64,000 nucleotides of DNA from a virus (taxonomy: Duplodnaviria > Heunggongvirae > Uroviricota > Caudoviricetes). The translations under genes were made by a program, and so were the position numbers. Where the stretch lies: IMG/VR virus record IMGVR_UViG_3300021399_000097; one strand, given 5' to 3'. This document shows, piece after piece, positions 46,122-46,979 of this stretch. Numbering within the stretch: the first letter of the stretch is position 1; every line of letters begins with the position of its first letter. The notes under the pieces were generated by a model, which was not told the origin of the DNA, made no database searches, and saw nothing but the letters and a program-made list of their open reading frames with translations.

Positions 46122-46979
46122 ATGGGATTAAATCAATACGATAAAATAGTAGCAAGTGAAATAAATGATTTACGAGCTGCTATAAATACTGAGTTATAGA
46201 GACGTGATAGATATACTTTTACATTTGATAATACCATAAATGCTATTAAAGAAGATGAAATTATTCCTAATATTTGGAATAATTTAATACATCCTTTAAA
46301 TTAGATAAATACTACTATAACAGATTATTCAGAGGTTGCTTAGTACGATATTATTAAAGCACTAATTAAATTATAGATAGCCAATAATGATTATGCATCA
46401 CGGCCATATCGTTAGCCAAGTGGAGAAACAAATAATTCTGCTTGTAATAGTTCTTGTGTTGGTTTATGTACTAGTTGTACAGGAAATTGTACTGGAACAT
46501 GCTCTGGATGCACAGGAAGTTGTACTGGTACTTGCCAAGAAACTTGTACTGGAGCTTGTACAACTGGTTGTTCTGGTTGTACTGGTAGCTGTGAGACAGG
46601 ATGTTTAACTGGATGTTTAGCTGCATGTTAGGATGATTGTTATTGGGGATGTAGTGGTACCTGTTAGGGTTGTGATGGGTGTTCTGGCTGTGGTGATGCT
46701 TGTTCATCAGGATGTAGTGATGCTTGTAGTTCAGGCTGTGGAGGAAATTGTAGCGGAACTTGTAGTCAATATTGTATTTATACTTGTTATGGAACCTGTG
46801 ATGGAAATTGCGATGGAGCTTGTGGAGGAAATTGTAGTAGTAGTTGTACAGGAACTTGTTGGTCTACTTGTTCTCAAGATTGCACTAGTGGATGTAATTC
46901 AACTTGTAAAGGCTGCGGTGGTGGCTGCACTGGAACTTGTTATGGTTCCAATATAAGAGCAAGTTTAGAAGATGAATAA
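46122..46979 (+). CDS. Cys-rich tandem-repeat protein: N-terminal domain of about 105 aa plus about 180 aa of (C-x-x-x)n (7 TAG)
   Basis: AAAGGAGAG SD. Reading through 7 TAG gives CVGLCTSCTGNCTGTCSGCTGSCTGTCQETCTGACTTGCSGC...CKGCGGGCTGTCYG, with about 50 Cys. The track's +ORFs 46387..46608 and 46633..46956 are out-of-frame artefacts. Confidence 0.6.

Follow-up and report, generated by a model that had tools for sequence, protein, structure and literature searches.

The question raised by this locus is what an extremely Cys-rich repeat protein does in a tailed phage, and how it comes to be made. The locus lies on a stretch of 64,000 nucleotides (IMG/VR record IMGVR_UViG_3300021399_000097, Caudoviricetes), hereafter the window, in which a sequence-only reading had picked out a Cys repeat, hidden by in-frame TAG codons. 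The best overall explanation, which we regard as probable, is that the gene concerned, hereafter the target gene, encodes a late, probably tail-associated Cys-repeat protein that is modified by a maturase encoded next to it.

The reading frame of the target gene

The target gene, its parts and its upstream signals are located as follows.

46122..46979 (+), CXXX-repeat target gene, 285 aa, with TAG = Gln and the TAA stop codon at 46977-46979
46122..46442 (+), N-terminal domain (N-domain), codons 1-107, helical, conserved
46443..46940 (+), Cys repeat, codons 108-273, CNSSCVGLC junction followed by 43 Cxxx/Cxx units
46107..46113 (+), Shine-Dalgarno sequence AAAGGAG, 8 nt 5' of the target ATG (direct sequence reading)
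45986..46010 (+), terminator-like hairpin with T-run, separating the upstream gene from the Cys-repeat gene (consensus match only)

The target frame is interrupted only by TAG, which occurs seven times, at positions 46197, 46302, 46341, 46374, 46413, 46629 and 46665 (codons 26, 61, 74, 85, 98, 170 and 182); TAA and TGA are absent from it. The sequence-only reading had taken the seven TAG codons as sense codons, and this is supported by the 285-codon frame and by the evidence for Gln from the TAG codons of the maturase gene, as discussed below. The protein is also as rich in Cys as had been claimed, with 44 Cys in residues 108-273, which is 27% of this region of 166 residues. The array has period 4, as described, with 36 spacings of 4 residues, but the earlier count of about 50 Cys is too high, and 7 of the spacings are of 3 residues. 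The non-Cys positions of the repeat are chiefly Gly (35), Thr (25) and Ser (23), and aromatic residues are scarce.

At the DNA level, a tandem repeat of about 12 nt had been proposed. The periodicity is indeed present, as the period-12 spectral power is 3.4, compared with a maximum of 2.1 in 500 codon shuffles, but a long array is not, as Tandem Repeats Finder detects only short arrays of 2-3 copies, with periods of 9, 12 and 24. A recent DNA expansion as the source of the repeat was rejected for this latter reason. The periodicity of the target is real and is upheld at the protein level. Within the window, the only other Cxxx run is a spurious one of 8 Cys (54896-54967), in an alternative frame of the gene of an 884-aa protein that is described below.

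With the standard code, calling of open reading frames (ORFs) at the target locus gives fragments only. Val/Leu-rich artefacts had been noted on both strands; this description fits the plus-strand fragments (46387-46608 and 46633-46956), whereas the two minus-strand fragments are Asn/His/Gln-rich or Ser/Thr-rich. The Val/Leu-rich ORFs could be taken to mean that the target is not a gene and that its Cys frame is incidental to a DNA repeat or to a gene read in a different frame. This we consider hardly conceivable when the target is compared with its orthologue of 300 aa in L005, a 196-kb metagenomic contig that is syntenic with the window and has flanks that are 99-100% identical. In both phages the Cys frame is free of TAA and TGA, whereas the alternative frames are broken in L005. 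The N-domain (107 residues) is 98% identical between the two, with a nonsynonymous divergence (dN) of 0.008 and a synonymous divergence (dS) of 0.17 (dN/dS ~0.05). All 44 Cys of the window target align with Cys of L005, 12 of these with a switch between TGT and TGC, and 58 of the 119 non-Cys repeat residues (49%) are identical; the Cys residues of the target are predicted to be under selection. Standard-code homologues number in the hundreds, and a frameshifted copy in the viral contig L028 illustrates what a Val-rich out-of-frame translation looks like. As the L005 orthologue keeps the frame and all the Cys, and the alternative frames are broken there, the Cys frame is the predicted coding frame, as the sequence-only reading had it; the open frame and the Shine-Dalgarno site are in agreement with this. 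Three further orthologues of the clade have 308-344 aa and 50-59 Cys. The frameshift of L028 (2935-3653), which splits its Cxxx target so that the out-of-frame part reads Val-rich, may be an assembly error or mark a pseudogene.

The hairpin at 45986..46010 has a stem of 11 bp with 6 GC pairs, followed by TTTATTTTTT. This match to the consensus suggests that the Cys gene is the start of a new transcription unit.

TAG as a glutamine codon

The window has a G+C content of 32.6%, and the bases in long open frames increase from 27.5 kb to 43.9 kb once TAG is opened. When the maturase is compared with 26 standard-code homologues, the positions of its 15 TAG codons are occupied by Gln in 105 of the 390 cells (27%), compared with a background of 3.2%, and at one of these positions Gln is found in all 26. 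In addition, the entry P0121 of a public protein collection is the window maturase, at 100% identity, with Gln at each TAG. Because the maturase TAG codons align with Gln, and because P0121 has Gln at every one of them, the predicted reading of TAG is Gln (genetic code 15). The TAG positions of the target fall in variable alignment columns and are uninformative as to the amino acid. No tRNA genes were found in the 64-kb window; a suppressor tRNA(CUA) gene may lie elsewhere, as related contigs are ~190 kb.

The share of TAG among the Gln codons is 64% in the target gene, 54% in the maturase gene and 0% in the replication genes, and the first two are among the most TAG-rich genes of the window. 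Being so rich in TAG, the target and the maturase could be made only once TAG is decoded. This recoding of a stop codon also means that standard gene callers fragment both the substrate and the enzyme, so that such systems go uncounted in recoded phages. TAG use in the window is strongly gene-specific: the primase-like, helicase-like, ligase and gyrase genes have none, and 50-70% of the Gln codons are TAG in the PhoH-like, 634-aa structural, Cys, maturase and RuvC-like genes.

A radical SAM/SPASM maturase of the CXXX-repeat family

The cassette to which the target gene belongs includes, in addition, the following features.

47575..48909 (-), radical S-adenosylmethionine (SAM)/SPASM peptide maturase, CXXX-repeat target family (TIGR04115), 444 aa, 15 TAG
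48906..49211 (-), small partner protein, paralogue 2, 101 aa, 2 TAG, directly upstream of the maturase, with blastp homologues
49215..49505 (-), small partner protein, paralogue 1, 96 aa, modelled by AlphaFold with a predicted local distance difference test score (pLDDT) of 92
47004..47558 (+), downstream ORF, 184 aa, 1 TAG, hypervariable, between target and maturase
49532..49560 (-), sigma-70-like promoter, the best match in this region, upstream of the operon of partner and maturase genes
49570-49607, terminator-like hairpin that precedes the promoter match

The decisive context, which is absent from the sequence-only reading, is the CXXX-repeat-family radical SAM/SPASM maturase, the gene of which is 595 nt downstream of the target gene, on the opposite strand and convergent with it. 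It matches the NCBIfam model TIGR04115 ('radical SAM peptide maturase, CXXX-repeat target family') with 447 bits, the cutoff being 350. The radical SAM motif CNLRCSYC is found at aa 45-52 (CxxxCxxC), and the Cys motif of the SPASM domain is complete (C291..G..C309, C359xxC362x5C368xxC371, C390). The next-best families are PapB (173 bits, cutoff 340), CcpM (TIGR04068; 118 bits, cutoff 500), the SCIFF maturase (TIGR03974; 106 bits, cutoff 425) and QhpD (92 bits, cutoff 453). In model coordinates, the window maturase is without the N-terminal ~75-85 residues of the CcpM and SCIFF maturases, which we take to be a substrate-recognition domain.

The maturase is predicted to be co-transcribed, as an operon, with the two small partner proteins. 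The promoter match has TTGACT, a spacing of 17 nt and TATAAT (11 of 12 matches), with TG ahead of the -10 element. The AlphaFold model of paralogue 1 consists of a β-strand, a long helical hairpin and a β-hairpin, the strands forming a three-stranded sheet. The small partner was considered as a RiPP recognition element (RRE; RiPP, peptide made by the ribosome and then modified post-translationally) or PqqD-like protein, and this was rejected, since the modelled fold differs and Foldseek against the Protein Data Bank (PDB) gives only generic helical hairpins, with E >=0.2; a profile search of PDB sequences with the small partner gives no match. All the cassette genes except paralogue 1 (49215..49505) require TAG to be Gln. 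The 184-aa ORF has no family match, and its homologues are found in the closest relatives, L005/L006 and L090, only.

Linkage of target, small protein and maturase

By alignment of the relatives of the enzyme, 80 IMG/VR loci and 72 reference-genome loci were obtained, the former from 236 relatives in IMG/VR viral contigs; a scan of viral contigs with the single protein found no relatives, and the alignment-based scan recovered them. A Cxxx run of at least 15 Cys is present within 6 kb of the enzyme in 135 of these 152 loci. It is on the strand of the enzyme in all of them but L090, usually just upstream, and most of the loci that lack such a run are truncated or only distant relatives. In 56 of the 80 viral loci (blastp), the gene directly upstream of the enzyme gene encodes a conserved protein of ~100 aa, which in the related loci usually lies between target and enzyme; the window has two copies of it. 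The genome loci are almost all from Clostridia (Oscillospiraceae, Lachnospiraceae, Neglectibacter, Blautia, Eubacterium, Desnuesiella and Vallitalea), and an anaerobic host of this kind suits an oxygen-sensitive enzyme. Cultured strains with the cassette include Neglectibacter timonensis SN17 (L099, L129), Desnuesiella massiliensis mt10 (L110), Eubacterium pyruvativorans i6 (L111), Anaerolentibacter hominis CSJ-1 (L118), Anaerobacterium chartisolvens DSM 27016 (L130) and Vallitalea maricola AN17-2 (L126). In phages and prophages whose hosts are anaerobic Clostridia, the target, the small protein and the maturase occur as a linked set, and the locus and its relatives describe a system that is mainly a phage or prophage trait of gut Clostridia and is usually placed among tail genes. 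The claim that the protein is unlike common phage proteins is therefore not upheld, considering the 236 enzyme relatives and ~2000 target clusters; moreover, Pfam PF27846 and NCBIfam TIGR04114 already cover the repeat.

The phage is present in the gut samples ERZ12302819 and ERZ28612944. In deposited phage genomes there is no DNA match to the locus and no tblastn match with the target homologue P0010. The maturase is found there in two unannotated human-faecal phage contigs, with 35-39% identity; its other matches have ~25% identity and are unrelated radical SAM genes of jumbo phages.

The reference-genome locus whose maturase is closest to that of the window (64% identity) is L090 (NZ_CADAAJ010000081.1), which has the convergent layout; this 7.6-kb contig is binned as Methanobrevibacter and is probably a mis-binned phage contig. 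The other genome hits are from Bacillota, bar single metagenome-assembled contigs of Treponemataceae and Slackia (Actinomycetota). Two maturase genes of this type, a few kilobases apart, occur in L162 (5422-6744 and 10001-11332) and in L167 (1-1082 and 5001-6335), and two Cxxx target genes occur in L023, L032 and L036-L043.

A divergence island that covers the repeat and the maturase

The comparison with L005 defines a further feature.

~46450..49200 (no strand), divergence island relative to L005, with a nucleotide identity of 43-89%, compared with 99-100% in the flanks

The island contains the Cys repeat, the 184-aa ORF, the maturase and small protein 2, and the amino acid identities to L005 are 41.5% for the 184-aa ORF, 82.8% for the maturase and 76% for small protein 2. 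Within the target gene, dS is ~1.2 in the repeat and 0.17 in the N-domain, a difference of ~7x. Because dS in the repeat is far above that of the adjoining N-domain, the island points to the import of a module by recombination, and not to mutation in place.

The target family and its structure

A profile search of 1.84 billion cluster representatives (50% identity) gives 2042 relatives of the target with E <=1e-3, 201 of which have E <=1e-30. More than 200 metagenomic homologues of ~200 aa share the same architecture: an N-domain of ~105 aa, a C...C.GLC junction and Cxxx units up to the C-terminus. The junction motif C...C.G[LMA]C is present in 176 of 214 family members; a conserved aromatic-Gly cap at the C-terminal end of the repeat, which was also considered, was dropped, as it is present in just 33 of the 214. 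Many of the phmmer homologues of the target (E 1e-18 to 1e-9) carry the Pfam family PF27846 (tSAM_targ_Cxxx_rpt), and the target matches phrog_6085 with E = 1e-11. Across 103 targets, Ser, Thr and Gly are dominant at all three X positions.

The structure was modelled with AlphaFold on the homologue P0002, which is close to the window target, from an alignment of 75 sequences. In this model the N-domain is predicted with confidence (pLDDT 85-94) and has three helices, of residues 11-27, 50-68 and 75-93, whereas the repeat has pLDDT <50. In this homologue, structure prediction of the kind that the sequence-only reading had proposed as a check is thus informative for the N-domain and does not provide a confident fold for the repeat. 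Glu24 and Arg28 of the N-domain are invariant in 76 sequences, and Arg27 is nearly so. The fold of the P0002 model has no PDB match by Foldseek, and a PDB search with a profile of the family gives no meaningful match either; the low pLDDT of the repeat and the lack of meaningful PDB matches by either method do not favor the antifreeze-like β-helix that had been suggested for the repeat. The matches to the P0002 model in BFVD are unannotated homologues only, one of these having the automatic name 'TNFR-Cys domain-containing protein'.

Elsewhere in the family, Cxxx proteins reach 1785 aa with ~660 repeat residues and extra domains at either end, and the arrays reach 86 Cys. Fusions are seen with PF12810 ALK_LTK_GRD (326 bits), with a Hint domain (P0049) and with an SGNH esterase (P0090). 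In the proteins of 821 aa, the Cxxx repeat comes first, followed by two glycine-rich domains of ALK/LTK type. The genes of these ~821-aa proteins, which open with a 41-Cys Cxxx repeat, occur in L066-L087 (e.g. L071 2757-5198); they immediately precede the small-protein and maturase genes, and downstream there is a gene of a GH25-like lysin.

The target as predicted substrate and the proposed chemistry of the maturase

We consider it very probable, from the genomic context, that the target is the substrate of the adjoining maturase. The sequence-only reading had likened the protein to metal-binding or disulfide-rich proteins; because a CXXX-family maturase adjoins it, the target is to be seen as a predicted enzyme substrate and not as a free protein of this kind. 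The alternative, that it is an unmodified Cys-rich protein that binds metal or iron-sulfur clusters or forms disulfides, with the radical SAM gene as an unrelated neighbour, could appeal to the 27% Cys of the repeat region and to weak PDB profile matches of the family to furin-like Cys-rich regions and to a [FeFe]-hydrogenase segment (E 0.001-0.05). These matches are compositional, however, and the linkage with the enzyme family in 135 of 152 loci, together with the joint divergence of repeat and enzyme in the island, makes this alternative very improbable. Cytoplasmic disulfides are also unlikely in the inferred hosts, which are strict anaerobic Clostridia, and the target has no Pfam match, including matches to metal-binding or disulfide domains, in a Pfam set that was searched without PF27846.

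By sequence, the locus is assigned to the CXXX-repeat radical SAM target system (TIGR04115, TIGR04114/PF27846, TIGR04116), which is an already named family. The agreement includes the period-4 Cys array, an enzyme that passes the family cutoff and a protein of ~100 aa encoded upstream of it, and the small partner is probably the counterpart of TIGR04116 ('CXXX repeat peptide modification system protein'). The window differs from this system in the ~105-aa helical N-domain of its target, its convergent layout, its duplicated small protein, its variable downstream ORF and its TAG recoding, and in that the phage is related to contigs of ~190 kb. The CXXX-repeat families are said to go back to a 2011 paper of Haft and Basu. 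By analogy with characterized relatives of the enzyme, the reaction may be the formation of thioethers, a proposal for and against which the chances are about even; the pointer of the sequence-only reading to a thioether pattern would then be apt.

Several observations weigh against this assignment and this chemistry. The target scores below the cutoffs of TIGR04114 (14.6 bits, cutoff 20) and TIGR04117 (20.1 bits, cutoff 50). The small partners of the window have no detectable match to TIGR04116, a model that is matched by 1 of 22 members of the small-protein family, and weakly (E = 0.005). The convergent layout of target and enzyme is shared with the closest relatives only (L005, L090, L162, L165 and L167). 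The CXXX-repeat maturase family is named in databases, and no paper in the literature searched reports its reaction, function or role: TIGR04115 occurs there once, as an annotation label, and there is no mention of TIGR04114, TIGR04116, TIGR04117, TIGR04119, PF27846 or 'CXXX repeat'. As no reaction of the family has been reported, thioether chemistry is proposed by analogy alone. Finally, the target repeat has a single C-x3-[DE] motif, in which x3 includes Cys, and 10 Asp and Glu among its 166 residues.

QhpD is a SPASM radical SAM enzyme that forms Cys thioethers; it installs several of these, all intramolecular, in QhpC, which is a structural subunit and not a secreted peptide. The window maturase is likewise a SPASM radical SAM enzyme, albeit far below the QhpD cutoff, but QhpC is the γ-subunit of quinohemoprotein amine dehydrogenase, encoded in an amine dehydrogenase operon, and has a few cross-links to Asp/Glu and no repeat. 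PapB and the SCIFF maturase bear NCBIfam names that identify them as enzymes forming thioethers, with the Cys sulfur being linked to a carbon of another residue. The SCIFF and CcpM systems resemble the present one in having Cys-rich substrates, anaerobic Clostridia as hosts and thioether-forming SPASM maturases, and they differ in that their substrates are 45-aa peptides. A SCIFF system was rejected, given the score of the maturase and a target with 285 aa and 44 Cys, compared with a precursor of ~45 aa with six Cys.

The PapB/freyrasin system of Paenibacillus polymyxa is alike in its SPASM radical SAM maturase, the model of which is the second best for the window enzyme, and unlike in its substrate, which is a short leader-core peptide with 6 motifs. 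PapB requires an acidic acceptor, C-terminal to the Cys, in a Cys-x3-Asp/Glu motif, and its substrate has several Cys, each four residues from its acceptor, with a thioether formed at each motif (PMC12373016). Because C-x3-[DE] is essentially absent from the target repeat and there are only the 10 acidic residues, the acceptor cannot be an Asp/Glu of the PapB type, and a ranthipeptide of PapB/freyrasin type was rejected, the maturase being also well below the PapB cutoff. The acceptors are likely Ser, Thr or Gly.

The absence of the PapB acceptor motif and the unreported family reaction are also arguments for a different radical SAM reaction, such as the conversion of Cys to formylglycine, epimerisation or the formation of carbon-carbon cross-links, and the maturase does match the models of the anaerobic sulfatase maturase and of cyclophane-forming maturases with 45-56 bits. 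We consider such a reaction unlikely, as the best-scoring characterized relatives all form Cys thioethers, the Cys itself is the invariant feature of the substrate (44 of 44) and the aromatic residues that cyclophanes require are rare in the repeat.

A proposed role late in infection, probably at the tail

The proposed model is as follows. Late in infection, TAG would be decoded, and the target and the maturase would be made. The maturase would then use the 5'-deoxyadenosyl radical to join the sulfurs of Cys to carbon atoms in nearby residues, forming thioethers of sactionine or ranthionine type, by which a floppy Gly/Ser/Thr-rich repeat would be converted into a covalently stapled rod or knot, resistant to reduction and to proteases. 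The finished target would act as a protein and not as a cleaved peptide, with its N-domain anchoring it to the tail or the baseplate and its fast-evolving non-Cys residues being exposed. The reading as a working protein is based on the position of the gene, the fusions, the lack of a protease or exporter in the core of the cassette, the variation in the island and the TAG-dependent expression.

Whether the target is virion- or tail-associated we judge to be nearly a balanced question. In favor of it, 10 genes upstream of the cassette were sampled from 7 diverse phage loci, and 8 of these match PHROGs of the baseplate, the tail or the tail fibre, namely baseplate wedge phrog_6 (214 bits), baseplate phrog_1160, tail phrog_1887 and fibre phrog_26419 and phrog_7037. 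In one prophage the gene order is tape measure, three genes, maturase and target, and in a podovirus-like contig the target comes after a protein with a faint Mtd_N match. The window itself speaks less clearly for this location: its target gene is not beside baseplate genes, being 5.6 kb from the fibre-like genes, and is set in a block of unknown late genes. In addition, the slot between the tail and lysis genes also houses cargo genes, and position alone is no proof of a role in the virion.

An alternative is that the system is a classical RiPP: a leader, formed by the ~105-aa N-domain, would be removed, perhaps through cleavage by the small upstream HExxH protein, and the modified core would be freed at lysis as an antimicrobial or signalling peptide. 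It can be argued for this alternative that all the close relatives of the enzyme by hidden Markov models are RiPP maturases, that a DUF6782 metallopeptidase-like gene (45670-45999) is immediately upstream and that the N-domain is in every case followed at once by the repeat, the junction being conserved. We nevertheless consider it improbable. This peptidase-like gene is found near the cassette in only 1 of the 80 viral loci, and that locus is without a Cxxx run. No protease or exporter is present in the conserved three-gene core of the cassette; one locus (L164) has a Peptidase_C39_2 gene ~2.4 kb away. The 'cores' would be up to 86 Cys and ~660 residues long, in a protein of 1785 aa, and many targets are leaderless, opening with the repeat (MACSxGCGTSC), or carry large folded domains after it. 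Also, the strong purifying selection on the N-domain and its confidently predicted fold fit a working domain better than a leader. Since the upstream HExxH protein is not conserved with the cassette, a dedicated role for it in cleaving a leader was rejected.

A more specific form of the tail-associated reading is a new kind of phage tail appendage, with the Cxxx repeat as its shaft or tip, stapled by the radical SAM enzyme through dozens of thioether or other covalent cross-links and exchanged as a host-range cassette; we see this as a possible but doubtful extension. The variable non-Cys residues would then be the surface that contacts the host, and the repeat, the maturase and the downstream ORF would pass between phages as one unit. 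The appendage would resemble the collagen-like (Gly-x-y)n and Ala-rich shafts of tail fibres, which are also periodic low-complexity repeats encoded in the tail-fibre region, with variable repeat numbers, fast-evolving distal parts and a variable downstream gene; the likeness extends to position and logic only; no relation in sequence or structure was found. To our knowledge, no tail fibre needs a radical SAM enzyme, and the target, if the appendage reading is true, would be without known precedent as a virion structural protein that depends on a radical SAM enzyme for its maturation.

More generally, the substrates of this system can carry from 44 to well over 100 Cys, and if these are stapled by thioethers they would be among the most heavily cross-linked ribosomal products known, with radical chemistry being used for building a virus particle. 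With a compact set of four genes and several cultured lysogens, the question is directly testable.

Other features of the window

The gene directly upstream of the Cys gene (45670-45999, +) encodes a protein of 109 aa with a HEITH motif, which matches the Pfam putative metallopeptidase DUF6782 with 28.2 bits (threshold 27); in other phages its presence does not follow that of the cassette. Further upstream, at 43864-45107 (+), are the genes of a 268-aa protein with a Gly/Trp-rich N-terminus and a hydrophobic segment (phrog_16490) and of a β-rich 140-aa protein (phrog_20016, E = 1e-45). These two proteins adjoin the cassette throughout the clade (L005, L162, L163, L165 and L167).

Two giant proteins, of 884 and 1864 aa, are encoded at 52596-55250 and 57910-63504 (+) and have Ala-rich periodic stretches (...HAASATFA.NA.NA...); they are probably tail fibres. 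The 634-aa protein that is encoded between them matches virion structural PHROGs.

At 42264-43016 (-) is the gene of a 250-aa protein, the near-identical L005 orthologue of which carries the Pfam family Thg1 (tRNA-His guanylyltransferase-like); such a gene is unusual in a phage. The gene at 25085-26476 (-), with 5 TAGs, encodes an endolysin-like protein of 463 aa, which has an N-terminal part of peptidoglycan-binding type and an amidase-like C-terminal part.

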